64,000 nt of DNA from an uncultured bacterium (GCA_965662845.1 CBFIJD010000009.1:20564-84563); one strand, 5' to 3'. Shown: positions 11,926 to 55,784, counted from the stretch's first letter. Translations and numbers: made by a program. Notes: generated by a model from the sequence alone, not told the origin.

Positions 11926-11938
11926 GGGAACCTCCTGT

Positions 11939-13558: not shown

Positions 13559-13573
13559 AGGGCTACCGTGGGA

Positions 13574-35560: not shown

Positions 35561-35881
35561 TCATTTGGGAACCGCAACTGCGGACATCTCAACGCAGGTT
35601 TCATCGCCTTGCGAGTAGCGTCGAACCTCTTGTGTGCGAGGTAGATAGCGGTTGCGGTCTCCGGCCACAGAGCGCAGGTGAAACTCAGCGGCCTTGCGAG
35701 CGTTTCTGGCGGCCTCGCGCGGAGTCGCTGAACAGGCTGTGCCGGTTGTGATGACGTCGGTTCCGCCGTTGTCGACCACGGAGTAGGTGGGGTCATAGTC
35801 CGTCCGAAAGCGCTCTGCCGTGCTGCTACATCCCACAAAAAGCAGCCCGCAAGCGAGGCCAGCGATCAACTTAGCGTACAT
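35561..35881 (-). CDS. Small lipoprotein
   Basis: Lipobox AGLACGLLFVGC|SS; 106 aa; stop is 5 nt upstream of the DUF1289 start. Confidence 0.55.
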   Translation of the reverse strand: MYAKLIAGLACGLLFVGCSSTAERFRTDYDPTYSVVDNGGTDVITTGTACSATPREAARNARKAAEFHLRSVAGDRNRYLPRTQEVRRYSQGDETCVEMSAVAVPK

Positions 35882-41200: not shown

Positions 41201-42712
41201 AGACAAAACCGCCAGCGGGGCGTCGTTGCCCATGGAGCCAGTTGCCTCTCCCCCGTCGGTTATCATGGGAGCGAGCAACACATTGAGATCTTCTATGGTG
41301 TAGCCGAACAGCTTTTGACGTTCGAGGAGCGTGTTGGCGTCAGTGGTAGGGACATCGGCTGGAGCGGGCAACGCTTCGAGGGTGAGGACCTGCTCGTTCA
41401 GCCACTGCTGATAAGGCTGGGCTTGACAGATCTCTTGCTTCAACTCTTCGTCGCTGATGATGCGACCTTCGCGGGTGTCTACCAAGAACATCTTTCCTGG
41501 TTGCAGTCGACCTTTCTGAATGATGCGGGCCGGATCGATGTCTACCGCGCCGACTTCGGAGGCCATAATCACGAGGTCATCATCGGTCACGATGTAGCGA
41601 GCAGGGCGCAGTCCATTTCGATCCAGCGTTGCTCCAATTTGAATTCCGTCCGTAAATGCCAAGGCGGCGGGGCCATCCCACGGTTCCATCATGTGCTCAT
41701 GATATTCGTAGAAGGCACGCTTTTCTGCGGCCATTCCGGGGCTGTTTTCCCAAGCTTCTGGAACCAGCATCATCATGGCGTGGGACAGCGAATAGCCAGA
41801 CAAGACCAAAAATTCGAGAACGTTGTCCAAGCAAGCGGAGTCGCTTCCGCGTGGGACAATGATCGGCAGCAGGTCGCGGATGTTCTCGTAAAGAGGGCTC
41901 TCGAGCTTCTCTTGGCGAGACTTCATCCAGTTGATGTTGCCACGCAGCGTGTTGATTTCCCCGTTGTGAGCAAGGTAGCGGAAGGGCTGCGCGAGGTCCC
42001 ATCGGGGGAAGGTGTTGGTGGGGAAGCGTGTGTGCGAGAGCGCGATGCCACTCACAAAGCGCTCGTCAGCAAGGTCGAGGTAGAAGCGGTCCATCTGCTC
42101 TGGCATGAGCATGCCCTTGTAGGCAATCGTGCGCGTCGACATGCTGGTGATTACAAACTCTTCTATGTCTTGAAGAGTATTGCGAATTTCGTTGCGAGCC
42201 ACATACAGCAGGCGCTCGAAGGCTTGTTGATCGGCGGCTTGGCCTCTGCCAATGAACAACTGACAAATGACCGGCATGGCTTCGCTCGCTTGTTGCCCAA
42301 CGTGCCGCGTGTCCACAGGGACGTCACGCCAACCGAGCTTGGGCAACCCATTCTCTTCTAGAATATTGACGACAGCCTCGACGCAATGCTTCTGTTGCTT
42401 TTGGTCTTGAGGCAAGAAGATCGTGGCTACGCCGTAGTCGCCAAATGCAGGCAGCGAGACGCTCATCCGTGCACACTCCTCTCTGAAAAACGCGTCTGGA
42501 ATCTGAAGGAGAATCCCCGCACCGTCGCCAGTCTCTGGGTCTGCGCCAATCGCTCCGCGATGGGTCAGGTTACAAAGCAGTTGCAATCCTTGTCGGACAA
42601 TCTGATGAGACTGTTGATTGTGAATATGAACGACAAAGCCCACGCCACAGCTATCGTGTTCGAGTTGTGGGTCGTAAAGTCCTTGCTGGCGAGGATACTG
42701 ATTGCTGCTCAT
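38228..42712 (-). CDS. gltB: Glutamate synthase large subunit
   Basis: ~1494 aa; N-terminal amidotransferase ...DSCGVGF, FMN and GXGXXG domains; start at MSSNQYP after AAGGAAGG RBS (track ORF extends to 42772). Confidence 0.95.
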   Translation of the reverse strand: MSSNQYPRQQGLYDPQLEHDSCGVGFVVHIHNQQSHQIVRQGLQLLCNLTHRGAIGADPETGDGAGILLQIPDAFFREECARMSVSLPAFGDYGVATIFLPQDQKQQKHCVEAVVNILEENGLPKLGWRDVPVDTRHVGQQASEAMPVICQLFIGRGQAADQQAFERLLYVARNEIRNTLQDIEEFVITSMSTRTIAYKGMLMPEQMDRFYLDLADERFVSGIALSHTRFPTNTFPRWDLAQPFRYLAHNGEINTLRGNINWMKSRQEKLESPLYENIRDLLPIIVPRGSDSACLDNVLEFLVLSGYSLSHAMMMLVPEAWENSPGMAAEKRAFYEYHEHMMEPWDGPAALAFTDGIQIGATLDRNGLRPARYIVTDDDLVIMASEVGAVDIDPARIIQKGRLQPGKMFLVDTREGRIISDEELKQEICQAQPYQQWLNEQVLTLEALPAPADVPTTDANTLLERQKLFGYTIEDLNVLLAPMITDGGEATGSMGNDAPLAVLSDRPQLLYNYFKQIFAQVSNPPIDSIREEMVMSLTSHLGGEGNILRPEPGHARLIKLETPILTNEELCKLHHLDGAARLSLLVPVSAGPAGLEQALERLCQEAEAAIRAGKEYLILSDRGVGREHVAIPALLATGAVHHHLIRQKMRSSSSIILETGEAREIAHFCLLVGYGAGAVNPYLAFETFEQMLSEETLPATLTLEQATTNYLKAIRKGMLKVFAKMGISTIQSYRGAQIFEAIGLHEDVVRTYFSGTPSRISGIGVDVIAEEALRRHAEAYNDSPDVRSTLDVGGNYYWRRRGEYHQVNPYTTQTLQKAAQENSREVYRQFSQMINEQTRKLAAPRSLLTFRAGAAVPLADVEPAKEIVRRFATGAMSLGSISTEAHQTLAIAMNRIGARSNSGEGGEDPVRFEKHENGDWPMSRIKQVASGRFGVTIHYLVNCIELQIKVAQGAKPGEGGQLPGKKVSQEIAKVRHSTPGVTLISPPPHHDIYSIEDLAQLIFDLKNANPKARITVKLVSEAGVGTIAAGVAKTHADMIVIAGHDGGTGASPLTSIKYAGVPWELGISEAHQTLLLNRLRGRVRLQTDGQLKTGRDVAIAAMLGAEEFGFSTAPLIAIGCIMMRKCHLNTCPVGIATQDPELRKKFVGQPEHVINYFFMVAEEVREIMAQCGFRTFDEMVGRSDMLVQRSDIDHWKAKHVKLDGLLHQVEVGANDTRYCTQEQDHGLSTQIDHQLIAQAQPALEERKAVRIEMPVKNIDRAVGTMLSGRVAERYGAEGLPPHTIHCNLRGSAGQSFGAFLAPGVTLELEGDANDYTGKGLSGGTLIVYPPRNASYLADENILIGNTVLYGATQGTAYFNGIAGERFAVRNSGATAVVEGVGDHGCEYMTGGRVIVLGVTGRNFAAGMSGGIAYIFDEHQRFHQLCNQGMVELGPIQNPEEAQWVREEITKHRQYTQSQRAERLLENWEQTLSQFVRVMPTEYRLVLESMNHQAA

Positions 42713-42932
42713 TGCCTTCCTTGCTGAGGTCTGATTGGTCGTAAAGTGCGGAAGCGCGGCGCATCCGTTCACTCCGCCGTGCGACGAAGCGGGGACAAGA
42801 GTCTGCGGATGGCTGGGTCGTGCCCGTGGAACGGTGACAACAATTGCGAGGGGTTCGCTTCCTGTGGAGGATGCTGGGAGTCGACGGCTTCCGGGGGAGA
42901 AGTGGAAGAGTGCTATTTGAAGTCGACTTAGA

Positions 42933-42960
42933 CCGAATGTGACAAAATATTATCATTCGG
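42933..42960. promoter_or_regulatory. Interrupted palindrome CCGAATG-N14-CATTCGG upstream of ccoI
   Basis: Read directly in the 460-bp gltB/ccoI intergenic region; second palindrome AGGCAA-gatctg-TTGCCT at 43005..43022. Confidence 0.35.
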
Positions 42961-43172
42961 ATTCTTGAAAAGCAACCTGCAATAATCTCTGTTTTTTGCT
43001 GGAAAGGCAAGATCTGTTGCCTCAAAAAGTTACAACGACAAGCCGCGAGTAACGCCAGATTCTTTGGGAAGTTGCAAGCCGCTATAGGTAACTTTACGAA
43101 TAGCTGGTAAAAATTCGCATTGCAATACTACGCGAACTTTTTGTTCGTCTTCATTCTGGGCCCCAAAAAACT

Positions 43173-45617
43173 ATGCAAAATCAGTCTTCTTCTTGCTGTC
43201 CTTCTACGACACAAGCGCCTACGTCTGGCTCATGCTGTCCGAGTAAGCAAGCCGCGGTGGCTGAGCCCACGCCAAAAATTCAGATCGCGCCCGACGCTCA
43301 ACGCCACGCAAGCACTCCTGATCTTGACTCCGTGGTGTTTCGCAAACACTACGTCACCGCAAAAGACGGAGTCAGCGAAATTACTCTGCTCATGAAGGGA
43401 ATTCGCTGTGCAGCCTGTGTGAACCAGAACGAGACCGCGATCGAAGCCTTAGAAGGCGTGGAGGAGTTTCGCATCAATTACAGCAACCATCGCGGGATAC
43501 TACGCTGGGACGCGGACAAGCTGTCGCTACAAACCGTGATGGACGTGATCCAAAGTCTTGGATATGACGCGACGCCTCATTGTACGACCTCCCACGAGTC
43601 CGACCTAGATTCCCAGCGCCAGAGTGACTACATCCGCCTTGTGGTCGCGGTCTTTTGTTCCATGAACCTGATGTGGATCGCGATTGCTCAGTATGCAGGA
43701 TATTTCTCAGGGATTTCTCAACGTGCGACCGATCTGTTCAATCTGGCTGGATTTATTCTGGCGACGCCCGTCTTATTTTATGCGGGGCAGCCCTTTTTCA
43801 AAGGCGCGCTAGCCGGGATGCGCAACCGCATGCTCTCGATGGATTTCCAGATCGCCGCCAGCACTTCCATCATCTACCTCTACAGCATTTACGCCGCGAT
43901 TAGTCGCAGCGGAGAGACCTACTTTGAAGCCGTGGCGATGTTCATTATGTTCATCTCTATCGGTAAATATTTGGAGCTGATCGCCACACAGCGCATCACA
44001 GAGATTAGCCGTCATCTCAAGACGCTCCTGCCGTTTGCGGCGACAAGGATTGTAGACGGCAAGCGCGAGACCGTAGAGCTAGACCAAATTGAGACAGGCT
44101 GGATTCTGGAGACGCAGCCGGGCGAGCGAATTGTGGCCGATGGCAAAGTGTTGAATGGTACCTCTAGCGTTGACGAGTCGCATCTCACGGGGGAGTCGCT
44201 GCCAGTCATCAAAACGCAAGGCGCAGAAGTGAGCAGTGGGAGTATCAATTTGGAGGGCGTGTTGCGCTATGAGGTCGTGCGCCCTGTGCAAGAGTCTACG
44301 ATTTCGCGCATCATCAACTTGGTGGAAGACGCCCTGGGGCGAAAGCCACGCACTCGCCTGCTGGCAGATTCTCTGACGAAATATTTTGTCACCTTTATGA
44401 CGGTCATTGCCTCCGCCGTGTTTGCCTACGAGCTGTTATATGCAGGCGGGCTAGAGGTCGCGATTGTCCACGCGGTCTCTGTGTTGATCATCGCTTGTCC
44501 TTGTGCGCTATCGCTAGCGACCCCGATTGCCGTTTTGACAGGGATTTCCACCGCCACCGAACAAAAAATCCTCTTTCGTAGTGGGACGCAGTTCGAGACG
44601 CTCTGCAACATCACGGATGTGGTCTTAGACAAGACAGGCACTCTGACAGAGGGCAACCCCGCTGTGAATGAACATCGCAGCGCATTAGACGCCCCGCTGG
44701 TATTGGCGCAAGCGTTGACACAGAACTCTCGGCACCCTATCTCTAAGGCTGTAGAGCGATATTGCGCACAACAGGAGACCTCGACGGGCGATCTCCCTGA
44801 TTTGCAAGACTTTCAAGAGATCCCAGGGCAAGGAGTGCGTGCGCTCTGGAATGACAAAACCGTGTTGGGAGGGAATCCTGCGTTTTTGCTAGAGCAAGGA
44901 GTCACGTTTAGCGAAGCACAGCAGCAAGACTTGCAGCGATTTCGCTCGCAATGCCAAACGCTGTTCTTGCTGGCGCTGGACGGCGAACTTGTGGAGACCT
45001 ACGCGATCAGTGATCCGCTCAGACAAGAGAGCGCAGAGACCGTGCAGCACTTGCAGTCGTTGGGGTTGCGGGTGCATTTGCTGACGGGCGATCATCAGAC
45101 GGTGGCTGAAAAGGTCGCGCAACGCTGCGGCATTCCGATGACGCTGGTGCGAGCTTCTGTGCAGCCGGAACAAAAGCAGGCATACGTAGAGCAGATGCAT
45201 CAAGAGGAGCGCGTGGTGATCATGGTGGGCGATGGCATCAATGATGCGCCGTCCCTCGCAAAAGCTGACATCGGCATCGCGATGGGGACTTCAGCAGACA
45301 AAGCCCTGGAAATCTCGGATATCGTGTTGCTGAGCAATGATTTGCGGGCCATTCCCCAAGCGATGCAGATCGCCCGAGGAACCTTTCGCTTAGTGCGCCA
45401 GAACATGAAACTCTCACTTGTCTACAACTTGATTGCGATTCCGCTCGCCGTGGTAGGCTGGGTCATTCCGTTAATCGCCGCTCTCTCCATGTCGTTCTCA
45501 TCGCTGATGGTCGTGCTGAACTCGTTGCGTGCGCGACACGGGCTCCGACAAAAGCTCAAGCAATCCAAGTCCACAGCCGCACCAAGACCGGCGACCCAAC
45601 GACCACGCGCGATATGA
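43173..45617 (+). CDS. ccoI: Heavy-metal (Cu) translocating P1B-type ATPase, CcoI/FixI-like
   Basis: HMA domain GIRCAACV, CPC (IIACPCALSLATP), DKTGTLT, GDGINDAP; N-terminal SSSCCPS...SCCPS; ATGA-coupled to ccoS. Confidence 0.85.
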   Translation: MQNQSSSCCPSTTQAPTSGSCCPSKQAAVAEPTPKIQIAPDAQRHASTPDLDSVVFRKHYVTAKDGVSEITLLMKGIRCAACVNQNETAIEALEGVEEFRINYSNHRGILRWDADKLSLQTVMDVIQSLGYDATPHCTTSHESDLDSQRQSDYIRLVVAVFCSMNLMWIAIAQYAGYFSGISQRATDLFNLAGFILATPVLFYAGQPFFKGALAGMRNRMLSMDFQIAASTSIIYLYSIYAAISRSGETYFEAVAMFIMFISIGKYLELIATQRITEISRHLKTLLPFAATRIVDGKRETVELDQIETGWILETQPGERIVADGKVLNGTSSVDESHLTGESLPVIKTQGAEVSSGSINLEGVLRYEVVRPVQESTISRIINLVEDALGRKPRTRLLADSLTKYFVTFMTVIASAVFAYELLYAGGLEVAIVHAVSVLIIACPCALSLATPIAVLTGISTATEQKILFRSGTQFETLCNITDVVLDKTGTLTEGNPAVNEHRSALDAPLVLAQALTQNSRHPISKAVERYCAQQETSTGDLPDLQDFQEIPGQGVRALWNDKTVLGGNPAFLLEQGVTFSEAQQQDLQRFRSQCQTLFLLALDGELVETYAISDPLRQESAETVQHLQSLGLRVHLLTGDHQTVAEKVAQRCGIPMTLVRASVQPEQKQAYVEQMHQEERVVIMVGDGINDAPSLAKADIGIAMGTSADKALEISDIVLLSNDLRAIPQAMQIARGTFRLVRQNMKLSLVYNLIAIPLAVVGWVIPLIAALSMSFSSLMVVLNSLRARHGLRQKLKQSKSTAAPRPATQRPRAI

Positions 45618-45832
45618 ATGTCTTGCCGATGTTGCTCGGCATCTCACTGGTGCTCGGCCTGATTGGACTGGTTGGTTTCATCTGGGGAATCAAACGGGGA
45701 ATGTTTGAAGACCCTGAGCGCGTACGGCACAAAATTTTGCTCGACGACGAAGAAGAGGAACAATACCAACAAATGCTCCAACAAAAATCGGAATCCCCCT
45801 CCGCAGTTGACAAATCCGACACCCACAACTGA
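45614..45832 (+). CDS. ccoS: cbb3-type cytochrome oxidase maturation protein CcoS/FixS
   Basis: 72 aa, single TM then FIWGIKRGMFEDPERVRHKILLDDEEEE matching the CcoS consensus. Confidence 0.8.
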   Translation: MNVLPMLLGISLVLGLIGLVGFIWGIKRGMFEDPERVRHKILLDDEEEEQYQQMLQQKSESPSAVDKSDTHN

Positions 45833-45837
45833 AGGCT

Positions 45838-46245
45838 ATGCTCAACGTCCACACCATCTTAGTCCCGACCGATTGTACAGAGCGCTCCCGCCACGCAGTC
45901 CGCTACGCGACCGAATTGGCGCACCAATTCCAAGCGAGCATTCGACTATTGCACATAGTTGAGGGCGAAAGCGGACGAAGCAACCTCCCCAAAGAGGCGC
46001 TCGAACATTTTTGGAAGACCTTTTTCTGCAACTGCCCTTGCGATCTTGTGGTGCGGAGCGGGGATCCTTGCTCCGAAATTCTGGGGTATGTGCTGGAAGA
46101 GCCTGTGGACTTGATTGTCATGAACATGACGCGCCAGCGCAGCCTCGGCAGCAATCTCAACGGACACATCACCGAGAACGTCACGCGCTACAGCCCCTGC
46201 CCCGTCCTCTGCGTCAAAGAGACGCCAAACCCGCCTGCAACCTGA
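45838..46245 (+). CDS. Universal stress protein
   Basis: 135 aa UspA fold: ILVPTDCTERSRHAVRYATELA ... DLIVMNMTRQ ... VTRYSPCPVLCV. Confidence 0.8.
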   Translation: MLNVHTILVPTDCTERSRHAVRYATELAHQFQASIRLLHIVEGESGRSNLPKEALEHFWKTFFCNCPCDLVVRSGDPCSEILGYVLEEPVDLIVMNMTRQRSLGSNLNGHITENVTRYSPCPVLCVKETPNPPAT

Positions 46246-46297
46246 CGGTTCTCTGCCTTCTCACAACGCTCGCCGATTCTCTGAGACACTGCCAAGC

Positions 46298-48541
46298 ATG
46301 GACTCGCGTATCTCCGCGTTTGTCGACGCGATCGACACCTTATTTCTGATTCTCACCCCAGACGGTCGCATCCAAGCCTTCAATCGCGTTTGTCAAGAGG
46401 TGACCGGCTACACGCTGGAGGAGGTGCAAGGCCAATACGTCTGGGATCAATTTTTTTCCACGCGCGAGAAGCAGTTTCTGAACTCACTGTTTCAGCAAGT
46501 CCAACACCCGCCGTATCGCAACAGCTACGAAAATCTCTGGATTACCAAAGATGGGCAATATCGGCTGATCTCGTTCACCAACTGCGCGATTGTTGCGGAG
46601 GGGCGGGTGCGGCAAATCTGTGTGACCGGTGTGGATATCACGCAGCATCGCCGAATGACCGAAGAGCTGTGGAAGTATCGCATTCTGCTGGAAGAGCAAG
46701 TGCGGAAGCGCACCGCAGAGCTGAAAGCCTCCCAGACGCGCTTTGCCGGAATTCTGGAGATTTCGGAAGCGGCGATTGTCTCCGCAGATGAGTTCTTCAA
46801 CATCATTATCTTCAACCGAGGCGCCGAAAAAACCTTTGGTTACGAAGCGTCGGAAGTGATTGGACAACCGCTCAACATCCTGCTGCCGAAGCGTTTTCAT
46901 GCGGGCCACAACCAGTTCATGCGTCGCTTTCTGGAGAGCGATCAGCCTTCCCGCAATATGAGCGAGCGCTCTGAGATTTATGGAACTCGCAAGGACGGCA
47001 GTGAGTTCGTGGCCGAGGCGACGATTTCGAAGCTGACCATCAACGACGAAATGATTCTGACGGCGATGTTGCAGGACATTACGGAGCGCAGACGCATTGA
47101 ACTAGAGCTGCGCAACGCGAAAGAGCAGGCTGAGGCGTCTAACCTTGCGAAGACCCAGTTTTTGGCGAACATGAGCCATGAGATTCGCACGCCTTTGAAT
47201 TCGATCGTCGGGCTCAGTCAAATTCTGATGCATCGGAGCCGAGATCTTTCGCTGCCGAGGGAATTTCAAGATTATTTAGAAGACATCCGTGTGAGCGGCG
47301 AGAACCTCTCTGAGCTGATCAATAACATTCTCGACCTCTCCAAAATTGAGGCGGGAAAACAGGTAGCTTGCTTGGATGCGGTGAATCTGCGTGTGCTGGT
47401 GCAGGGGGTGTATCAAATCAACAAAGTCCAAGCCCTCGAAAAAGATATTCGCTTCTCATACTACTTAGAGCCGACACTGCCACCGATGATTCAGTCAGAC
47501 CGCACGATGCTGAATCAAATTTTGATGAACCTGATTGGCAACGCGATCAAGTTCACGCCCTCCGGCAAGTCGGTAGAGCTTCAGGTGCGCCAAGAGAAGA
47601 GCGAACTGATCTTGGATGTGATTGACCAAGGCATCGGGATCCCAGCCGAACACCAGCAGGCGATTTTTGAGTCCTTCGAGCAAGCGGATAAGTCGATCAC
47701 CCGCGCTTTTGGCGGCAGCGGTTTGGGGCTCTCCATCACGCACAGCATGGTGCAGAGTTTGTCTGGAAACATTGAACTGCGCAGTGACGCTGGCCGAGGG
47801 GCGTGTTTTACGGTGCGGCTGCCCTTGAATCCCGTTTCCGAAAGCGCCGGCGAGCTGCCGGATCATGCGTTTGATCTGCGGTTTGCCGAGGACAACTTGG
47901 TGCTGCTGGTCGAAGACAATCTGAAGAATCAGAAGATGATGCAGGCGCTCTTTTCAGATCTGGGCTTGCCGCTGGAAGTCGCTTCTAACGGTCCTGCTGC
48001 GCTGGAGTTGGTTCAGGCGCATCGACCTGACTTGGTGTTGATGGACATGCACATGCCAGAAATGGACGGCTTAGAGACCACGAAGCGTCTGTTGCAACTT
48101 GAGAACGGGAGCGATGTGCCGGTCGTCATTCTCTCTGCGGATGCTTTCCTCTACCAACAAGAAGAAGCGCTGGCGACCGGGATTGCGGGGTATCTCACGA
48201 AGCCGCTGGATTTCCGCAAACTGTTCCCCGTGTTGCAGCGCTATTTGCGTTGGCATGCAGAAAATCCAGAGACTCCCGATACGCTTGCCGCGGACGGTCT
48301 GACGCCTGAGACCATTGTTCAACTGCAAGCGTGCTGCATGCAGCTCCGCGATACGCCGTTGTTTCTGGCCGATGACATCATTCGCCTCGTGCAGCAGATG
48401 ATTCAACTTTGTGGTGAGACGGACACTCCGTTTGTGCCGCTGTTACAGCAAGTTGAGTATGCAATGTTCAACCGAGCATCGCAGACGGTTCCTGATCTCA
48501 TTGATAAACTCTGTAGTTTGCTGGAAGACCTGCAACCCTGA
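46298..48541 (+). CDS. Hybrid sensor histidine kinase: PAS-PAS-HisKA-HATPase-REC plus C-terminal helical (possible HPt-like) tail
   Basis: Two PAS units, H-box MSHEIRTPLNSIVG, HATPase (DQGIGIP, GGSGLGL), REC (LVLLVEDN...DLVLMDMHMPEMDG...KP). Confidence 0.85.
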   Translation: MDSRISAFVDAIDTLFLILTPDGRIQAFNRVCQEVTGYTLEEVQGQYVWDQFFSTREKQFLNSLFQQVQHPPYRNSYENLWITKDGQYRLISFTNCAIVAEGRVRQICVTGVDITQHRRMTEELWKYRILLEEQVRKRTAELKASQTRFAGILEISEAAIVSADEFFNIIIFNRGAEKTFGYEASEVIGQPLNILLPKRFHAGHNQFMRRFLESDQPSRNMSERSEIYGTRKDGSEFVAEATISKLTINDEMILTAMLQDITERRRIELELRNAKEQAEASNLAKTQFLANMSHEIRTPLNSIVGLSQILMHRSRDLSLPREFQDYLEDIRVSGENLSELINNILDLSKIEAGKQVACLDAVNLRVLVQGVYQINKVQALEKDIRFSYYLEPTLPPMIQSDRTMLNQILMNLIGNAIKFTPSGKSVELQVRQEKSELILDVIDQGIGIPAEHQQAIFESFEQADKSITRAFGGSGLGLSITHSMVQSLSGNIELRSDAGRGACFTVRLPLNPVSESAGELPDHAFDLRFAEDNLVLLVEDNLKNQKMMQALFSDLGLPLEVASNGPAALELVQAHRPDLVLMDMHMPEMDGLETTKRLLQLENGSDVPVVILSADAFLYQQEEALATGIAGYLTKPLDFRKLFPVLQRYLRWHAENPETPDTLAADGLTPETIVQLQACCMQLRDTPLFLADDIIRLVQQMIQLCGETDTPFVPLLQQVEYAMFNRASQTVPDLIDKLCSLLEDLQP

Positions 48542-48609
48542 CTCGCTTGCAATGACAGAACAAGTATGTAACGTTTCCGCGCTCACACAGACCCTTCACG
48601 GAGACGTTC

Positions 48610-49554
48610 ATGTCTGGCACCAAAACGTTCTACTGGCTACAGTGTGGCGGCTGTAGCGGCGACACCCTCTCGATCCTGAATCTCAGCAATCCTAGCCTGC
48701 CGAGTTTGCTGCAATCTCTCCAAATTGAAGTCCTGTTTTGGCCTTCTCTCACCAGTCACACGCCTCACGAACAAGCGGAGCTGCTCGCGGAGCTGCGCTC
48801 TGGTCAACGTCCTCTGGATTTCTTCTGTGTGGAAGGCAACGTCGTGCAAGGGCCTGACGGCACGGGCATGATGGATACTTTTCGAGGAGAGCCCAAACGA
48901 GACATCGTGCGTGATCTAGCACAACAAGCGGAATACGTCATCGCGGTGGGCACCTGCGCCGCGTACGGAGGTTTTGGGGTGGACGACGACATGGACGGGG
49001 TCGGCTTGCAGTTCAAACGTTGGGAGCGCGGTGGATTTCTTGGCGCCGAGTTTCGGTCTCGCGCCGGAGTGCCTGTGATCAACCTTGGTGGCTGCCCTGT
49101 CCACAGCGATGTGCTCGGCGACGTGCTCACGCTGCTTTGTGCTGGGGCTCCGCTTGAGTTGACCGATACGCAGCAACCAGCAGACTGGTATGGCATGACG
49201 GTGCATCAAGGGTGCACTCGCAACGAATACCACGAGTATCGTGTGGAAGAGAGCGACTTTGGCGAGTTTGGGTGCATGTTCTTTCACATGGGCTGCAAAG
49301 GCCCTGTAACGTTTTCGGCGTGCAACAAAACGCTTTGGAATGGTCGTAATTCCAAGACACGTGCCGGGGTGCCGTGCTTTGGCTGCACGCGCCCTGACTT
49401 TCCACAAGAAGACCCCTTCTTTGAAACCCCTCAGATTGCTGATACGCCCATTGAGCTGCCTGCTGGCGTAGAGCGGTACAAGTATCTCGCTTACAAAGGA
49501 ATGGCTGCCGTCGCGGCGCCAGAGCGCATCAAGTCTCGTCAAAATCGCATTTGA
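48610..49554 (+). CDS. [NiFe]-hydrogenase small subunit, cytoplasmic type (no Tat signal)
   Basis: WLQCGGCSGD proximal-cluster CxxC, medial/distal cluster Cys/His (HQGCTRN, GCKGP, CFGCT); N-terminus MSGTKTFYW lacks RRxFxK. Confidence 0.85.
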   Translation: MSGTKTFYWLQCGGCSGDTLSILNLSNPSLPSLLQSLQIEVLFWPSLTSHTPHEQAELLAELRSGQRPLDFFCVEGNVVQGPDGTGMMDTFRGEPKRDIVRDLAQQAEYVIAVGTCAAYGGFGVDDDMDGVGLQFKRWERGGFLGAEFRSRAGVPVINLGGCPVHSDVLGDVLTLLCAGAPLELTDTQQPADWYGMTVHQGCTRNEYHEYRVEESDFGEFGCMFFHMGCKGPVTFSACNKTLWNGRNSKTRAGVPCFGCTRPDFPQEDPFFETPQIADTPIELPAGVERYKYLAYKGMAAVAAPERIKSRQNRI

Positions 49555-49564
49555 GCACTACGAA

Positions 49565-51094
49565 ATGAGCGCCACACGCAACATTGAAGTCCCGCTCAAT
49601 CGGGTCGAAGGTGACCTTGAAATTCGGGTGGAGCTAGACGGGCACACCGTCACCCGCGCATGGAGCAAAGGGACGCTATACCGTGGTTTTGAGAACATGA
49701 TTCGTGGTCGCGCGGCGAGAGATGCCCTAGTGGTGATGCCTCGGATCTGTGGCATTTGTGGCACGTCGCATCTCTATGCCGCTACGTTGGTGCTGGAGAA
49801 GATCATCGGGCTGCGCCCCCCAGCCGACGCGGTTCGTTTGCGGAACGTCTCTCTGCTCGCGGAACAAGTCCAGAACGACTTGCGACAAGCTTTCTTAATG
49901 TTCACGCCCGACTTGACCAATCCCGCGTTTGCCGCGCATCCCGACTACGCCGAAGCCCAAGAGCGCTATGCTCCCTTTGAAGGGCGCTCTGTGCACAGCG
50001 TGATTGAGTGCAGCCGCCTGCCGGTGGAAGTGATTGCGATTTTGGGAGGACAGTGGCCGCACTCTTCTTACATGGTCCCCGGTGGCCTCGCGACGGTTCC
50101 CAGTGTGATTGATCGGCTCAAATGTCGGCAACTTCTTGAGCAGTGTCTGCGTCACTACGAACGGCGGATTTTAGGCTGTTCAGTGGAGCGCTGGAACGAC
50201 GTCCAGTCCCTCGCCGACTTAGAGCAATGGCTAGAAGAAACGCCGTCGCACAGAAATTCAGATGTTGGATTTTTGCTGCGTTTCGGGCGCGATATTGGCT
50301 TGGAGCGCCTCGGAGAAGGGGTAGACACGTTCCTGAGTTTTGGCTCTTGTCCAAGTCCGGAAGGTGACGGGGCCTTTGTCCCTAGTGGAATCGTGAGCGG
50401 GCAAGTTCGGCAGCCGTTTGAACAACGGCATATTACAGAACAAGTGGCGTCCTCGTGGTTCCGCCCCTATGAGGGAGGGCTGCATCCTTCAGAAGGCAAA
50501 ACCGAGCCGCAATACAATGCGTCTGACGAGCGCCGCTACACTTGGGCCAAAGCGCCGCGCTATGAAGGGCAGCCAGCGGAGACCGGCGCGTTTGCGGAGA
50601 GTTTGGTTGCCGGGCATCCACTGTTCACGGATTGGTTGGCACAGCGTGGGGCGAATGTGCTGGCGCGTGTCATCGCTCGCGTTGTGCGCCCCGCGTTGGT
50701 TTTGCCGCAAATGATCGCTTGGCTGAATGAGAGCGTGGGAAGTGACCACTTCTACCAAAATCCGGGAGCATTGTTCGATGGAGAAGGCGCGGGGCTGTTG
50801 CACGCCGCTCGCGGGGCGCTGGGACATTGGGCGCGCGTCAAAAATAACAAAATCGAGCACTATCAAGTCATCACACCGACGGCTTGGAATGGTTCTCCTC
50901 GAGATGAGAAGGGCGTTTGTGGCCCTTGGGAAACGGCGCTGGCGAATACAGAAATCAAAGACCCTGAGAACCCCATCGAGCTTGGAATGATCGTGCGCTC
51001 GTTTGACCCTTGCTTAGTCTGCACCGTGCACACGTATCGTCCAAACGGTCAGCCTTTAGGAGAATATCGTCTGGGGATGAAAGGGACGAGATGA
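49565..51094 (+). CDS. [NiFe]-hydrogenase large subunit
   Basis: L1 motif RICGICGTSH and L2 motif DPCLVCTVH, with ~20-aa C-terminal tail after the His; 509 aa. Confidence 0.9.
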   Translation: MSATRNIEVPLNRVEGDLEIRVELDGHTVTRAWSKGTLYRGFENMIRGRAARDALVVMPRICGICGTSHLYAATLVLEKIIGLRPPADAVRLRNVSLLAEQVQNDLRQAFLMFTPDLTNPAFAAHPDYAEAQERYAPFEGRSVHSVIECSRLPVEVIAILGGQWPHSSYMVPGGLATVPSVIDRLKCRQLLEQCLRHYERRILGCSVERWNDVQSLADLEQWLEETPSHRNSDVGFLLRFGRDIGLERLGEGVDTFLSFGSCPSPEGDGAFVPSGIVSGQVRQPFEQRHITEQVASSWFRPYEGGLHPSEGKTEPQYNASDERRYTWAKAPRYEGQPAETGAFAESLVAGHPLFTDWLAQRGANVLARVIARVVRPALVLPQMIAWLNESVGSDHFYQNPGALFDGEGAGLLHAARGALGHWARVKNNKIEHYQVITPTAWNGSPRDEKGVCGPWETALANTEIKDPENPIELGMIVRSFDPCLVCTVHTYRPNGQPLGEYRLGMKGTR

Positions 51095-52491
51095 TGGTGG
51101 AGAGCGCAGATATCACAGAGGAGCTGGAGCGGTTACAGCAAGAAAACGAACGGTTGCGCGAAGAGGTCGAGACGTATCGCTTGTCGAGCGAACTACAAGA
51201 ACAGATGGTGCTATATCGCTACAAAGAACTGTCGGAGGCGCTGGAGCGCTATCACGATTCCAGTGAGCAGCTGCGGAGCATCTTGCGCTCTGTGCGGGAT
51301 CCTGTGATTGGGGTGAGCGGCGACGGCGCGATTGACTTGTGGAACCAAGGAGCGGAGCAGCTCTTCGGCTATGCGGAGTCGGAAGCCGTGGGACAGAACA
51401 TCCACAAGCTGTTGGCTCCTGTTGCTTTGCAGGAGCAAGCACACGCAGGAGTCCGCCAGTTCCGCAAAAACGGCAAAGGCCCGCTGGTGGGTACTGTCCG
51501 TGAAGTGGAAGCGGTCTGTGCCGATGGGACGATCCTTCCCATTGAGATTGGCCTGACGTCCTATCAGCGGCAAGGCGGGTGGCACGCGGTGGGAGTCTGC
51601 CGCGATTTGCGACATCGCAAAGAACATGAACAAACCCAGCAACAGCTAGCGTATCAATCAGGAATGGCAGAGATCGCAGCGACCGTTCTGCACAATGTAG
51701 GGAACGTCGTGCAGGCAATGACCGGTCACTTAGGCAAGTGCGAGCGGAATTTGGGAGAATTGCAAAAAACAGCCAGTATGGTGCGCCAGTTGGTCTCAAT
51801 GCTACCGACAGATGCGAAGTTCTTTGTGAAGCCCAAGGCCGAACCCCAGCCACTGGAGCCTTTACTGGAAGAGGTCGCGCGCATTCTCGTCGATCTCAAA
51901 CAACAGCGCCTGCAACCGGCACTGGAGTCTTTGCAGCAAGGGATGGAGCACATCACAGAAGTACTCCATGTGCAACGTGAGATGGCGCGAGGTGCAAAAG
52001 TAAACTCGGGCCAAGGGTTTCCGCTAGAGCCGTTGTTAGAACAAGCTGTCGCGTTGTTTCAAGAGCCCCTACAACGGCAACAAATCCAAGTTGAAATCTC
52101 GGTTGCAGACCATGTCCCCGCGCTCGACTTACCGAGAAACCCCTTGCAGCAGGCGGTGTTGAACTTATTGAAGAACGCCTTAGAAGCTATCTGTGAGCGA
52201 AAACAACAAGAACCAGAAGTCGAAGGTTGGATTCGCATTCAAGGCTCATATCGCGAAAATCGCCTCTATCTCTCCGTCTCCGACAATGGCGTTGGTGTGG
52301 CGCCAGAGTTTCAAGACAAACTGTTTCGTTTTGGTGAGAGTACGAAACGTGCGGGCTCAGGGATGGGGCTGCACAGCGTCGCAAACTTTGTGCAGTCGCA
52401 ACAAGGCAGCATCCAATTTCAGAGCGAGGGGCTCCGACAGGGATCTCTCGTGCAACTCACTTTCCCCCTCCCTCCAGAAATCAGCTCATGA
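51091..52491 (+). CDS. Soluble PAS-domain histidine kinase, HoxJ/HupT-like
   Basis: ATG overlaps hydrogenase large-subunit stop (ATGA). Coiled-coil then PAS (VIGVSGDGAIDLWNQGAEQLFGY), H-box LHNVGNV, N/G boxes LLKNALEA, DNGVGV, GSGMGL. Confidence 0.8.
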   Translation: MMVESADITEELERLQQENERLREEVETYRLSSELQEQMVLYRYKELSEALERYHDSSEQLRSILRSVRDPVIGVSGDGAIDLWNQGAEQLFGYAESEAVGQNIHKLLAPVALQEQAHAGVRQFRKNGKGPLVGTVREVEAVCADGTILPIEIGLTSYQRQGGWHAVGVCRDLRHRKEHEQTQQQLAYQSGMAEIAATVLHNVGNVVQAMTGHLGKCERNLGELQKTASMVRQLVSMLPTDAKFFVKPKAEPQPLEPLLEEVARILVDLKQQRLQPALESLQQGMEHITEVLHVQREMARGAKVNSGQGFPLEPLLEQAVALFQEPLQRQQIQVEISVADHVPALDLPRNPLQQAVLNLLKNALEAICERKQQEPEVEGWIRIQGSYRENRLYLSVSDNGVGVAPEFQDKLFRFGESTKRAGSGMGLHSVANFVQSQQGSIQFQSEGLRQGSLVQLTFPLPPEISS

Positions 52492-53762
52492 ATCAGCGAA
52501 TTCTTGTGATTGAAGACAGCCCACAGGTCGTGGAATGGTATTTTTCGGTTTTACAGCCCGAACAATCGGCGACGACACATCTGCAAGCGCTAATGGGCCA
52601 AGCGGAGGATGTGTCCGCTAGCGCAACGAAACCGCACTTTGAGGTGGTTGTGGCTCATCAGGGGGAAGAAGGAGTGCAACAGTTTGCGGACGCTCATGCT
52701 CAAGGCAGGCCGTTCGCGGTGGCTTTTGTGGATATGCGGATGCCTCCGGGCATTGACGGATTAGAGACGGCACGACGACTACGACAGATTGACGAGCGCC
52801 TGTATGTTGTGATCGCGACAGCCTTTAGTGACCATGAAGTCGATGAGATTCAAGCTGCGCTGCAGCATGATGTGATGCTGTTGCGAAAGCCGTTCACAGG
52901 AGAGGAGCTGCTGCAACATGCTCGGAATCTTTGCAATAGCTGGAATCGTGACGACGAGCTGCACCAACTTCGTCTGGGATTAGAAGCTCAGGTGGAAGCC
53001 CGCACGCAAGAGCTTATTTCTCAGAGGGAACAACTAGAACACGCTTCGCGGCTGGCTTCGTTAGGAGCCTTGGCAGGGGGAATCGCGCATGAGTTGCGTT
53101 CCCCGCTGGCAGCGCTGCGCATGAACTTAGAGAGCATGCAGCTGGGCGTTAGCTCTGGGAACTGGGCTTCAGAGAAAACATTGCAGCAAATCTCACGATC
53201 TCTGCACATCTTAGACAAGACCAGCTCCGTGCTGCACCAAATGCGTAAGTTTGGGCATCCTCACCAAGAGTCGGAGGTCTCCCAAGCGATCTCGCTGAGC
53301 GAGGTCTTGCAGGGGGTACTGTTGCTTAGCCGGAACCTGTTGAACAAGGAAGGAGTGCAGCTGCTGTTAGACATTCCCTCCGACCTGCCGACATTTCCGG
53401 GGAACGCCGTTCAGATTGAGCAAGTGTTACTCAATTTGGTGAACAATGCGCGGCATGCGATGTTAGAAAGTCCGATGAAGCAGCTGACGTTTCGTGCTTA
53501 TACAGCGGAGCAATGCTTGGTCGTCGAGGTGGAAGACACGGGCTGCGGCATGTCGGAAGAGGTGCAAGAGCGGATGTTTACCCCGTTTTTCACAACCAAG
53601 GACCCCGATCAGGGGCTAGGCTTAGGGATGGATATTGTGAAGCAGGTGATAGAGCGGCATCAGGGGAAGATCGCAGTGCGCAGTGTGTTAGAAGAAGGCT
53701 CTTGTTTCACACTGCGCTTTCCACTGACGCGTAGCAAGGGGATCGCGGGCAAGGGGGAGTAG
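52488..53762 (+). CDS. Receiver domain fused to histidine kinase (REC-HisKA-HATPase)
   Basis: ATGA overlap with preceding kinase; REC with insert (ILVIEDSP...FVDMRMPPGIDG...KPF), H-box IAHELRSPL, HATPase (DTGCGM, GLGLGM). Confidence 0.8.
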   Translation: MNQRILVIEDSPQVVEWYFSVLQPEQSATTHLQALMGQAEDVSASATKPHFEVVVAHQGEEGVQQFADAHAQGRPFAVAFVDMRMPPGIDGLETARRLRQIDERLYVVIATAFSDHEVDEIQAALQHDVMLLRKPFTGEELLQHARNLCNSWNRDDELHQLRLGLEAQVEARTQELISQREQLEHASRLASLGALAGGIAHELRSPLAALRMNLESMQLGVSSGNWASEKTLQQISRSLHILDKTSSVLHQMRKFGHPHQESEVSQAISLSEVLQGVLLLSRNLLNKEGVQLLLDIPSDLPTFPGNAVQIEQVLLNLVNNARHAMLESPMKQLTFRAYTAEQCLVVEVEDTGCGMSEEVQERMFTPFFTTKDPDQGLGLGMDIVKQVIERHQGKIAVRSVLEEGSCFTLRFPLTRSKGIAGKGE

Positions 53763-53766
53763 GCGA

Positions 53767-54855
53767 CTATTCGGTGTCGTCCACCTCCGTCTCTGCTTCA
53801 GCGTCGGCAGGGTAGTGCCCCGTCAAGTCCATACCGAGCGAAAGTCCCATCGTTTCGAGAACCGTTTTGATTTCGTTGAGAGACTTGCGGCCAAAGTTTT
53901 TGAACTTGAGCAATTCGGGTTCACTCTTCTGCACCAACTCGCCGATGCTTTCAATCTTCGCATTTTGCAAGCAGTTGATGCTGCGCACAGAAAGCTCTAG
54001 CTCGTGGATGCTGCGGGGCAGGTGCCGCACCCAGTCGGGGGGTTCGGGAGCCGTCTCTTGCAAGGGTTCTTCGGAGCGTGTGACGATGGTTTCATCAAAA
54101 TTGATGAACAGTTGCAGCTGCTCTTTGAAGAACTGCGCAGCGTCGCCGATCGCTTCTTGGGGTTTGATAGAGCCGTTTGTCCAAAGCTCAAAGATCAGGC
54201 GATCATAGTCGGTTTTCTGCTCAAAACGAGCGTTTTCAACTTCGTAATTGATCCGGCGGATAGGCGAGTGGTGCGAGTCTAAGAAGAATGTCCCCGTTGG
54301 AAGTTCCACATTCTGATTCTCTTCCGCAGTGATGTACCCACAGTTCATGCGTAAGAATATTTTGATTTTCAGCGCTGCGCCTTCCGCTAAGTGCGCGATC
54401 ACATGAGACGGATTGAGGATCTCTGCTTTTTCGGGATCGTTGATGTCACCAGCGCGGAGCACACCAGGCCCTTGGGCGTTCATTTCCAACTCCACGATCC
54501 CGTCATAAAGCTGGTTCACCTGCACTTCTTTTAGGTTCAACAGCAGCTGGGTGACGTTCTCTCGAATGCCTTCTAAGGATGCGAACTCGTCGGTAACTCC
54601 TTCAATTTGCACAGCAAAGACCGCGCTGCCTTCGGTGGCGGCCAACAAGACTCTGCGCAGTGCGTTCCCCAGTGTGATGGCAAATCCTCGCTCCAGCGGT
54701 TCCACAATGAAGCGTCCATAAGAGGAGCTGAGAGTGCCGGGCTCAACCCGTAGGCCGCGAGGAATGGAGATGCGAGTCCAGTTCTGGGCAGACAGATGTG
54801 GAGAATCTTGGTTGTTCATTGGTGGTACAGGGACCCAGTTCTCAGCCTGGCTCAT
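53767..54855 (-). CDS. rpoA: DNA-directed RNA polymerase subunit alpha
   Basis: VEPLERGFAITLGNALRRVLL NTD and CTD ELSVRSINCLQNAKIESIGELV...FGRKSLNEIK; no flanking rpsD/rplQ. Confidence 0.9.
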   Translation of the reverse strand: MSQAENWVPVPPMNNQDSPHLSAQNWTRISIPRGLRVEPGTLSSSYGRFIVEPLERGFAITLGNALRRVLLAATEGSAVFAVQIEGVTDEFASLEGIRENVTQLLLNLKEVQVNQLYDGIVELEMNAQGPGVLRAGDINDPEKAEILNPSHVIAHLAEGAALKIKIFLRMNCGYITAEENQNVELPTGTFFLDSHHSPIRRINYEVENARFEQKTDYDRLIFELWTNGSIKPQEAIGDAAQFFKEQLQLFINFDETIVTRSEEPLQETAPEPPDWVRHLPRSIHELELSVRSINCLQNAKIESIGELVQKSEPELLKFKNFGRKSLNEIKTVLETMGLSLGMDLTGHYPADAEAETEVDDTE

Positions 54856-55050
54856 GATCCTCCTATGCAGAAGAGTTCCTGGAAATAGAAGCCGAGCGCA
54901 CAGATGTTGGTGCGATCAAACGAGAAGTTACGCGCTGTTTTCTTATTGGGGTTCTTAGTGAGTGCGGAGGGTATGCGTTTTTGCAGGGGCGGAAGAGACA
55001 CGCTTGCTCTGCTACGAAAGGAGTTTTGAAGACCGATGAAAGCAAAGGAG

Positions 55051-55127
55051 TGGCGGGGTCGACGGGGCTCGAACCCGCGACCTCTGGCGTGACAGGCCAG
55101 CGTTCTGACCAACTGAACTACGACCCC
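55051..55127 (-). tRNA. tRNA-Asp (anticodon GTC)
   Basis: Cloverleaf folded by hand: acceptor ggggtcg/cgacccc, U8A9, D-stem gttc/gaac, anticodon stem ctggc/gccag loop ctGTCac, T-arm gcggg-ttcgagc-cccgt, 3' CCA encoded. Confidence 0.9.
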
Positions 55128-55171
55128 GCATTGGGTAGAAACACTACTTGAGATGGTAGTGTTAGAGAAGG

Positions 55172-55247
55172 TGGTGGGCGCTACAAGGATCGAACTTGTG
55201 ACCTACGGTTTGTAAGACCGCCGCTCTCCCAGCTGAGCTAAGCGCCC
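55172..55247 (-). tRNA. tRNA-Val (anticodon TAC)
   Basis: 76 nt: acceptor gggcgct/agcgccc, D-arm gctc-agctggga-gagc, anticodon loop ctTACaa, T-arm acaag-ttcgatc-cttgt, CCA encoded. Confidence 0.9.
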
Positions 55248-55298
55248 AACGAAAGCTCAATAGAATATCGGATAAGACGCTCGATGGCAAGTGTTTTT

Positions 55299-55784
55299 TC
55301 AGGATGTTTGTGAGGTCGGCGCTGTGAACGTCGCAGCCACAAAAAAAACAACCCCCAAGCTAATGAAGCAGTCGGCCAAGTTATTCACAAAAAAGCTGTA
55401 GTCGTACCACCGAAAGTGGAAAAAGTCGGTGACGTGTCCAAACCACGCGCGGTCGATGAGATTGCCAATGGCTCCAGGCAAAATCCAAGTCAGTCCCTGC
55501 TGAGTCCACAGGTCTAAGGTTGGCCAGTAGCGCAGTTGATAGTAGAGCATCCCTGCGACGGCCAGCGTTGAGATCCCAATCAACAAGGGCAGGCGAAAGG
55601 TGTCGTCTAAGTCCGCGAGCAGGCTGAAGCTCACACCGCGATTTTGGACGTGCGTCAGATCTAAAAAGTTGGGTAGCAGGGGCGTCAACTCATACAGCGG
55701 GACACTCGCGCGGATCCAAACTTTGGAAGCGAAATCAATGGTGAGGAGGCAGATCATGACCACGCCAGAGACCCACAATCTCAT
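55299..55784 (-). CDS. lspA: Lipoprotein signal peptidase (signal peptidase II)
   Basis: 161 aa, 4 TM, conserved FSLLAD and GAIGNLIDR motifs; 4-nt overlap with hisS. Confidence 0.85.
   Translation of the reverse strand: MRLWVSGVVMICLLTIDFASKVWIRASVPLYELTPLLPNFLDLTHVQNRGVSFSLLADLDDTFRLPLLIGISTLAVAGMLYYQLRYWPTLDLWTQQGLTWILPGAIGNLIDRAWFGHVTDFFHFRWYDYSFFVNNLADCFISLGVVFFVAATFTAPTSQTS

Follow-up and report, generated by a model that had tools for sequence, protein, structure and literature searches.

The 64,000-nucleotide window analysed here, one strand of a contig from an uncultured bacterium (GCA_965662845.1 CBFIJD010000009.1:20564-84563), carries a cytoplasmic [NiFe] hydrogenase (hereafter the query) whose two subunit genes are embedded among three histidine kinase (HK) genes. 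The five genes, in the order HK1, small subunit, large subunit, HK2 and HK3, are co-directional and occupy positions 46298-53762 of the + strand (Table 1). Start and stop codons overlap as ATGA at the large subunit/HK2 and HK2/HK3 junctions, and these overlaps tie the large subunit, HK2 and HK3 together. An earlier reading of this DNA, made from the sequence alone (the sequence-only reading), had described a hydrogenase within a three-kinase phosphorelay as a candidate H2-sensing module. The genes, domains, coordinates, L1 and L2 motifs and 20-amino-acid tail all lie where it placed them on the + strand, both overlaps can be read directly in the sequence, and Pfam and tblastn agree with its count of three kinases, two receivers and no HoxA/HupR-type regulator in the locus. 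The phospho-accepting residues are all present (His294 and Asp583 in HK1, His201 in HK2, Asp82 and His201 in HK3).

Table 1. Features of the window, with the hydrogenase-kinase locus first (positions counted from the first letter of the window)
Feature	Position	Strand	Description	Basis
HK1	46298-48541	+	747 amino acids; PAS, PAS, HisKA, HATPase_c, Response_reg, then a helical tail of ~100 amino acids; soluble hybrid histidine kinase	Pfam
[NiFe] hydrogenase small subunit	48610-49554	+	314 amino acids; Oxidored_q6 and NiFe_hyd_SSU_C	Pfam
Small subunit, Cys15-Asp18	48652-48663	+	Part of the candidate proximal cluster site	Alignment
[NiFe] hydrogenase large subunit	49565-51094	+	509 amino acids; NiFeSe_Hases, E 3e-76	Pfam
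Large subunit, L1	49742-49771	+	RICGICGTSH, residues 60-69	
Large subunit, L2	51005-51031	+	DPCLVCTVH, residues 481-489	
Large subunit, C-terminal extension	51032-51091	+	20 amino acids after the L2 His: TYRPNGQPLGEYRLGMKGTR	
HK2	51091-52491	+	466 amino acids; soluble; N-terminal coiled coil, PAS, HATPase_c	Pfam
HK3	52488-53762	+	424 amino acids; REC, HisKA and HATPase_c fusion	Pfam
ccoI/fixI P-type ATPase	43173-45617	+		Pfam; JGI gene calls on the near-identical contig L006
ccoS/fixS	45614-45832	+		Pfam; JGI gene calls on L006; translation
Universal stress protein (usp)	45838-46245	+		Pfam; JGI gene calls on L006
rpoA	53767-54855	-		
Orphan REC-kinase	6790-7872	-	360 amino acids	
PrkA-like kinase, DUF444 (YeaH-like), SpoVR-like	9418-14638	-	Three genes in a row	
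Five-PAS protein	23999-26638	-	879 amino acids; five PAS_3 repeats	
Open reading frame	1803-4133	-	776 amino acids; no Pfam match at E<=1e-5	
Open reading frame	32968-34179	+	403 amino acids; no Pfam match at E<=1e-5	
Open reading frame	35871-36701	-	276 amino acids; no Pfam match at E<=1e-5	

The small subunit begins with MSGTKTFYWLQC, without a twin-arginine translocation (Tat) signal, and alignment with small subunits of groups 2a, 2b, 2c and 1d identifies candidate ligands for the proximal (Cys15, Asp18, Cys116 and Cys162), medial (Cys238, Cys256 and Cys259) and distal (His199, Cys202, Cys222 and Cys229) iron-sulphur (FeS) clusters. The sequence-only reading was correct about the missing Tat signal and the distal-cluster His, a position occupied by Thr in Huc. 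The CxxC motif that it reported does exist, as Cys12/Cys15, but is shifted by three residues from the canonical proximal CxxC: Cys15 occupies the first canonical Cys column, Cys12 is extra, and the second canonical Cys is Asp18. An Asp at this position is found throughout the query clade and in the representative of the diguanylate cyclase (DGC)-linked enzymes, with Asn in Huc, and a review table lists the group 1h enzyme with a proximal cluster of three Cys and one Asp (PMC11023054). The extra C-terminal peptide of HoxB/HupU is missing from the alignment of the query small subunit.

The best solved relatives of the large and small subunits are those of Huc, the group 2a enzyme of M. smegmatis (E 3e-109 and 1e-78, respectively). 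The L1 motif of the large subunit ends in His and L2 is followed by a tail, features that the alignment shows in the query, its clade and groups 2a and 1d. At 20 residues the tail is the longest in the surveyed set, yet no endopeptidase gene adjoins it, and the HK2 gene begins at the place that the protease gene takes in relatives. Where HoxC has Ile62 and Phe110, the two positions of the gas channel, the query has Ile and Met, and alignments show all Ni-Fe and FeS ligands intact in both subunits. Comparison of the two subunit genes with a near-identical JGI variant gives 28 synonymous and 4 non-synonymous changes (ratio of non-synonymous to synonymous polymorphism, pN/pS, about 0.04-0.05), which, small as the numbers are, indicates purifying selection; HK1 differs by 6 synonymous and 0 non-synonymous changes. 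The gene order is identical in three independent assemblies (the NCBI contig, the JGI contig and a Logan assembly).

Searches of the whole 64 kb by tblastn and Pfam scans found no hyp gene, endopeptidase, HoxA-type regulator or second hydrogenase, which bears out the sequence-only reading for the hyp genes and the second hydrogenase. The tblastn queries were four endopeptidases and the full Hox/Hyp complement of C. necator pHG1 (E<=0.01), and the matches were the two hydrogenase subunits and kinase cores only. The Pfam scans, which covered the other large open reading frames (ORFs) of the window besides the five-gene locus, detected no GGDEF, EAL or HD-GYP domain in the window, and neither they nor tblastn found a DNA-binding response regulator, sigma-54 AAA+ proteins included, among its large ORFs. 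The remaining large ORFs are housekeeping genes, one further REC-kinase and one five-PAS protein.

Group 2c of the [NiFe] hydrogenases was reportedly first defined by Greening et al. in 2016 (ISME J). The definition used here is second-hand: one source gives SFDxCLVCTVH as the L2 consensus (PMC4853749), while HydDB lists 2c as DGC-linked, putative H2 sensors and in its table assigns the histidine-kinase-linked sensors to group 2b (Sondergaard et al. 2016, PMC5037454). A review (PMC11023054, Table 1 and text) calls the regulatory hydrogenases of C. necator and R. capsulatus '2c', in conflict with their HydDB assignment to 2b, and this usage confuses literature searching. The query L2 (SFDPCLVCTVH) fits the published 2c consensus. 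The query large subunit is 35% identical to HoxC (35-38% to 2b enzymes), 41% to the Huc-type 2a reference and 45% to the Ideonella enzyme, and 53-56% to numerous homologues from metagenomes and genomes. When genome contigs were scanned with the large subunit alone, the one match was an unrelated locus from Peptococcaceae, 27% identical.

A neighbour-joining (NJ) tree of 79 large subunits was computed with 200 bootstraps in a numpy implementation, using reference sequences from annotated plasmids that were picked by gene architecture and are not the curated HydDB 2c set. The references for this and the other comparisons were HoxC, HoxB, HoxJ and HoxA together with HoxG (pHG1), a HupUV-HupT locus, three 2a loci and a plasmid locus of Ideonella dechloratans, whose succession of small subunit, large subunit, endopeptidase and PAS-GGDEF-EAL protein is the HydDB signature of group 2c. 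Groups 2a (without the query) and 2b and the DGC-linked clade were each monophyletic in 200/200 bootstraps. The query fell in a kinase-linked clade in 139/200 (70%), on a long and basal branch, and this clade joined the DGC-linked clade in 189/200 (94.5%), with the query grouping with 2b in 0/200 and its clade with 2a in 1/200. By sequence, the hydrogenase probably belongs to the group 2c lineage in the broad sense, within a kinase-linked sister clade of the DGC-linked branch. The sequence-only reading had proposed a placement of the large subunit against these groups, and it clusters neither with the uptake enzymes of 2a nor with 2b; the suggestion of an undescribed kind of H2 signalling did not hold, given the 2c consensus at L2 (PMC4853749), the 94.5% grouping and the putative sensors that HydDB already lists (PMC5037454).

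The likeness to group 2c extends to a cytosolic small/large subunit pair without a Tat signal, the Asp at the second position of the proximal cluster and a predicted signalling role with an output that would not bind DNA. The query nevertheless differs from the DGC-linked representative in more than its moderate identity: its sister clade is partnered by a histidine kinase and not by a PAS-GGDEF-EAL protein, and its own locus has three kinases, no c-di-GMP (cyclic di-GMP) enzyme and no adjacent endopeptidase. HoxBC-HoxJ and HupUV-HupT likewise pair a soluble [NiFe] hydrogenase that lacks a Tat signal with a soluble PAS histidine kinase encoded next to it (PMC6978683), an arrangement that the query shares in outline only, along with the Ile at the first gas-channel position that is common to all group 2 sequences aligned. 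The locus departs from HoxBC-HoxJ-HoxA and HupUV-HupT-HupR in every feature that the sequence-only reading had listed. Both 2b references end L1 in Gln (...SVSQ and ...SISQ) and not in His, HoxC and the HupV homologue end at the L2 His (...CTVH) where the query has its tail, Phe and not Met occupies the second gas-channel position, the HoxB/HupU C-terminal peptide has no counterpart, and the query window contains neither an NtrC-type sigma-54 regulator of the HoxA/HupR kind nor a target uptake hydrogenase. Membership of group 2b, whose large subunits mature independently of an endopeptidase, was rejected on the tail, the L1 His and the 0/200 bootstraps, and the likeness of the locus to HoxBC-HoxJ is one of function, by analogy, and not of family membership.

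Group 2a (Huc, PDB 7UTD/8DQV; cyanobacterial HupSL) provides the closest solved structures, and its members resemble the query in being cytosolic and in carrying a cleavable tail and the L1 His. Huc differs in the Asn of the proximal cluster and the Thr at the distal-His position (Asp18 and His199 in the query), and 2a loci have DUF1641, NifU, NHL and hyp neighbours that the query window lacks. Membership of 2a was rejected on the monophyly of 2a without the query, the single bootstrap joining it to the query clade and the absence of Huc-type accessory genes.

The neighbourhoods of related enzymes were surveyed with a 30-sequence profile in a metagenome scan that confirmed 555 relatives, 80 of which were returned as loci. 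Genes were called by domain-prioritised ORF selection and annotated with hidden Markov models (HMMs) self-built iteratively from Pfam-delimited seeds. The query clade was taken as those loci whose large subunit has 46% identity or more to the query and resembles it more closely than it does the Ideonella enzyme (48 loci), an assignment by identity that is backed by the NJ tree; 39 of the 48 were evaluable, with at least 1.5 kb downstream, some of them being close kin of one another. A histidine kinase is encoded within three genes downstream on the same strand in 35 of these 39 loci, and nearby in 37. Hybrid kinases lie downstream in 21 and Hpt domains occur in 8, a stand-alone REC is found nearby in 21, and an endopeptidase gene follows immediately in 13. 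The nearby partners also include GGDEF proteins (7/39), REC-SpoIIE (PP2C) proteins (4/39) and STAS proteins (2/39), and the longer REC proteins of the clade were resolved by Pfam as three REC-HD-GYP and one REC-STAS. Its c-di-GMP enzymes are mainly REC-GGDEF or REC-HD-GYP proteins located downstream of the kinase, and the receivers checked at query-clade loci yielded no DNA-binding output domain. Neither cytochrome b, HucE/NifU/NHL-type partners nor a diaphorase adjoins the hydrogenase in the 39 loci or in the window. In the same survey the hydrogenase genes of 2a loci are followed by NifU and hyp genes, and those of the Ideonella-like clade by an endopeptidase and a PAS-PAS-GGDEF-EAL protein.

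Precomputed Pfam annotation of three loci illustrates the arrangement. An NCBI assembly contig (L002) has a HycI-family endopeptidase, a hybrid kinase, a stand-alone REC and a second hybrid kinase; Magnetospirillum sp. XM-1 (L004) an endopeptidase and a PAS hybrid kinase, with a divergent REC, REC-SpoIIE (PP2C) and STAS; and a Planctomycete contig (L005) an endopeptidase, a HisKA-HATPase-REC-Hpt kinase and REC-SpoIIE. The named close homologues come from Chloroflexi, Planctomycetes, Riflebacteria, Deltaproteobacteria, Kiritimatiellaeota, Acidobacteriota and Magnetospirillum, with a further close large-subunit homologue in Paramagnetospirillum magneticum, and the kinase linkage is kept across loci from many sample types. 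Extra kinases or receivers occur in about half of the related loci. From these counts, therefore, the tail, the missing HoxA/HupR-type regulator and the additional kinases and receivers are normal for the lineage, and the first two, which the sequence-only reading had treated as peculiarities, are the rule in the query clade. What is particular to the query locus is the lack of an adjoining endopeptidase and of the clade-typical PAS domain, the presence of two FixL-like PAS domains and the upstream position of the hybrid kinase.

Several of the surveyed loci depart from this pattern in other ways. In one subclade (L029, L030, L034, L044, L047 and L049) the small and large subunit genes are followed by a PAS-PAS-PAS-kinase (~700 amino acids) and a stand-alone REC (~121-157 amino acids); the large subunits, at roughly 8.3-11.5 kb in each locus, have tails of 4-6 residues and no adjacent endopeptidase, as though this subclade were drifting independently towards the 2b sensors, which have no tail. 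Directly upstream of the 2c-like set in L029 (upstream of 9344), L030 and L044 is a second, divergent set, consisting of a small subunit, a large subunit (477 amino acids, ~30% identical to the query), an endopeptidase and a kinase of ~990 amino acids, so that two kinase-linked hydrogenases stand in tandem. A separate kinase-linked group (L075, L078 and L086) has large subunits of 475-490 amino acids that are ~40% identical to every reference and carry a 4-residue tail; a kinase of 412-433 amino acids comes next, and then a REC-PAS-kinase-REC protein (L075, L078) or a stand-alone REC (L086). In the tree this group diverges close to the base of group 2, and it may represent a further lineage of sensors.

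Of the window proteins, HK1 best matches the hybrid kinases encoded after the hydrogenase at related loci (32-34% identity over 380-490 amino acids), although it lies upstream of the hydrogenase and its counterparts downstream. A single-sequence AlphaFold2 model presents its C-terminal tail as a helical bundle (predicted local distance difference test, pLDDT, 72), whose top Foldseek matches are Hpt proteins at non-significant values (E 0.26-0.8); the tail has no HxxKG histidine and no Pfam match to Hpt at E<=10. HK2 has no Pfam match to HisKA, and comparison with homologues revealed instead a conserved H-box of the HNVGN type (AGMAEIAxxVLHNVGNV, containing the phospho-accepting His), which lies outside the Pfam models and is present in 87 of 119 homologues, the named carriers being mostly Myxococcota and Planctomycetota. 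Because this H-box is shared with its homologues, HK2 is, by sequence comparison, a real kinase. Outside the same species HK2 yielded no close orthologue, and the match that came next was 25-33% identical. The resemblance of HK2 to HoxJ that the sequence-only reading had noted holds for the domain order but not beyond it; with 24.5% identity and a different H-box family, orthology was rejected. The best match to HoxJ in the window is the kinase core of HK3 (30% over 260 amino acids).

The PAS domain of HK2 has the heme-PAS of FixL as its best solved match (E 8e-16) and FixL as its best NCBIfam match (E 1.4e-32), and together with the second PAS domain of HK1 (HK1-PAS2) it is most similar to the FixL heme domain, both at ~30% identity to FixL PAS. 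When the window PAS domains were aligned with 16 FixL-family PAS domains, with columns numbered by BjFixL, in which His200 is the proximal ligand of heme b and the Arg columns belong to the propionate/O2-binding positions, HK1-PAS2 placed His204 exactly in the His200 column and an Arg in the Arg206 column, without an equivalent of Arg220. In HK2 Arg137 occupies the Arg220 column, and His118 is one column off His200 and aligns only if two loop indels are assumed. Unlike FixL, HK2 has a kinase core of the HNVGN H-box family and not of the HisKA type, and no FixJ-type regulator adjoins the query locus. The FixL-like PAS domains of HK1 and HK2 are a lead for heme binding, suggested by these alignments, and not evidence of it.

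A different PAS type, ~140 amino acids long and marked by an F-helix-region insertion and the motif EWTY, was recognised in 24 hydrogenase-adjacent signalling proteins (119-227 bits) and is a candidate for the domain that couples kinase to hydrogenase. It is the first domain of most PAS kinases that follow these hydrogenases (for example L029:9344-11425 and L004:11729-14011), as well as of a PAS-PAS-GGDEF protein (L033). The window PAS domains score generically against it (31 bits for HK1-PAS2 and 22 bits for HK2-PAS).

On balance, and with moderate confidence, the hydrogenase is likely to serve mainly as a reporter of H2 availability to histidine kinases, with a non-transcriptional output, and not to feed a respiratory chain. 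In favour of an H2 sensor are the intact metal-ligand and phosphotransfer residues, the phylogenetic placement, the kinase linkage in 35 of 39 related loci, the purifying selection on the subunit genes, the overlapping codons from the large subunit to HK3 and the lack of electron-acceptor partners, in agreement with the sequence-only reading, which had tied a cytoplasmic hydrogenase to signalling proteins and not to respiratory partners. In the proposed mechanism, H2 would be oxidised, slowly, at the Ni-Fe site and the electrons would reduce the FeS chain of the small subunit, and a PAS domain in one of the associated kinases would then sense the redox or conformational state of that subunit. 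The first candidate for this reader is HK2, on account of its translational coupling to the large subunit, followed by HK1 as the counterpart of the hydrogenase-linked kinases in related loci. The readout would alter autophosphorylation of the kinase, phosphoryl groups would pass to the receivers of HK1 and HK3, and HK3 could act as a receiver-gated kinase that signals to a response regulator whose gene lies elsewhere. Relatives suggest, by analogy, that the signal probably ends in c-di-GMP turnover, a PP2C/STAS partner switch or a CheY-like protein, and not in direct DNA binding; a non-transcriptional or multi-step output, raised as a possibility in the sequence-only reading, is the best reading given that none of the linked receivers found in relatives is DNA-binding. 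The genes themselves, the intact catalytic and phosphotransfer residues, the placement, the linkage of hydrogenase to kinase across lineages and the purifying selection are established. Comparative genomics suggests a physical coupling, a direction of signal flow and an output of the kinds given above.

A number of points weigh against this interpretation. No experimentally characterised group 2c enzyme was found in the literature searched, so that 'sensor' is a prediction even for the class, and it is because no tested member of the lineage was found that confidence is kept at the level given. The query retains the L1 His and a cleavable tail, as do catalytic uptake enzymes, and lacks the Gln and tail-less signatures of the 2b sensors. 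Direct coupling between hydrogenase and PAS domain is less secure here than in relatives, because the window kinases lack the ~140-amino-acid PAS type. The 64 kb contains no endopeptidase or hyp gene that would support maturation of the enzyme. The tree was built by NJ only and without curated HydDB references, with just 70% support for the kinase-linked clade, and the survey rests on the authors' own crude gene calls and self-built HMMs.

The retained catalytic features could also belong to a metabolic enzyme, a cytosolic uptake or H2-recycling hydrogenase similar to Huc and other 2a members, which the kinases regulate or with which they are merely co-regulated. Such a role would fit the Huc subunits as closest solved structures, the L1 His and tail, the maturation endopeptidase adjacent to relatives and the distal His ligand, which belongs to the standard electron-exit cluster. 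It is, however, considered unlikely: the electron-acceptor and Huc-type accessory genes that are present at 2a loci adjoin neither this hydrogenase nor those of the 39 related loci, no DNA-binding regulator was found through which the kinases could control hydrogenase transcription, the clade joins 2a in a single bootstrap of 200, and the linkage to kinases is conserved over many sample types and named phyla.

A combined sensor of H2 and O2 or redox state, with heme held by two FixL-like PAS domains (HK1-PAS2 and that of HK2), would refine the H2-reporter reading without contradicting it. The hydrogenase might reduce the heme, or the heme might gate the kinases by O2 so that H2 is reported under a given oxygen regime. 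The two FixL matches of HK2, the occupied His200 and Arg206 columns in HK1-PAS2 and Arg220 column in HK2, and the co-directional ccoI-ccoS and usp genes directly upstream are consistent with such a sensor, which is nonetheless doubtful, as the alignment of HK2 His118 needs two loop indels, HK1-PAS2 lacks an Arg220 equivalent, identity to FixL PAS is ~30%, a cofactor is not inferable from sequence, and related loci use the other PAS type. Adjacency of ccoI/ccoS to the hydrogenase was seen in the query species only, when compared with L002, L004 and L005, and by itself gives no support to the integration of H2 with O2 or redox status that the sequence-only reading had drawn from it, although the FixL-like PAS domains provide a weak independent lead in that direction. 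A broader and similarly doubtful proposition is that the kinase-linked sister clade is a widespread H2-sensing system with second-messenger or partner-switch outputs and that the query has been rewired within it, having lost its endopeptidase and the clade-typical PAS domain and become coupled to a FixL-type, possibly heme-binding, three-kinase cascade, so as to bring H2 and O2 into one phosphorelay.

Maturation genes are often unlinked to hydrogenase genes. An inactive remnant, with an unmatured large subunit and kinases acting independently, would account for the lack of hyp and endopeptidase genes in the 64 kb (13 of 39 related loci have an endopeptidase gene directly after that of the large subunit) and for the long basal branch, but is highly improbable given the intact Ni-Fe and FeS ligands, the 28 synonymous against 4 non-synonymous differences between population variants, the identical synteny in three assemblies and the 26 of 39 related loci that likewise lack an adjacent endopeptidase.

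HoxBC and HupUV are H2 sensors with a described mechanism, and both switch on uptake hydrogenase genes (PMC6978683, PMC11023054). The receivers linked to the kinase-linked branch point instead to c-di-GMP, PP2C/STAS partner switching and CheY-like proteins, and if this is true, H2 would be used as a lifestyle cue, for biofilm formation, motility or stress sigma factors, and not only to make hydrogenase. Since 2016 group 2c has counted as a putative class of sensors, and the survey adds a large kinase-linked branch in metagenomes; no published description of this branch was found in the literature searched, nor anything relevant on c-di-GMP-linked or hybrid-kinase H2 sensing. Judged by sequence comparison, the window locus is a divergent member of this already named, putative and uncharacterised lineage, in a kinase-linked branch that is common in metagenomes. 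Its different kinases make it an outlier, useful mainly for comparison. More is gained from the picture of the clade as a whole and from the finding that Magnetospirillum strains have the canonical version: Magnetospirillum sp. XM-1, with a complete 4.8-Mb genome record, carries the canonical architecture, which would be directly testable if such strains are genetically workable.

Upstream of the locus, ccoI-ccoS-usp may or may not be co-transcribed with the hydrogenase genes; a promoter and terminator scan of 42700-55300 gave counts at or below shuffled expectation and did not delimit the operon boundaries. The cytochrome oxidase genes ccoNOQP were not found in the window despite the presence of ccoI/fixI and ccoS/fixS, and the upstream neighbour of ccoI is gltB, on the opposite strand. 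Elsewhere in the window, the receiver of the orphan REC-kinase is 47% identical to that of the REC-PP2C protein beside the Planctomycete hydrogenase (L005), and this kinase could be a further node of the same network. The five-PAS protein is without a recognisable output domain, and the PrkA-like, DUF444 and SpoVR-like genes form a conserved stress/starvation trio.

Downstream, rpoA is convergent with HK3, with four bases between the stop codons, and is isolated from ribosomal-protein genes. Its product carries an N-terminal extension and has as its best matches RpoA proteins of 375 amino acids (55-58% identical), the few named ones being from SAR324 and unclassified 'Deltaproteobacteria' metagenome-assembled genomes, which suggests a poorly sampled, SAR324-like host lineage. 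LptF/G and LolA, also encoded in the window, indicate that the host is diderm.

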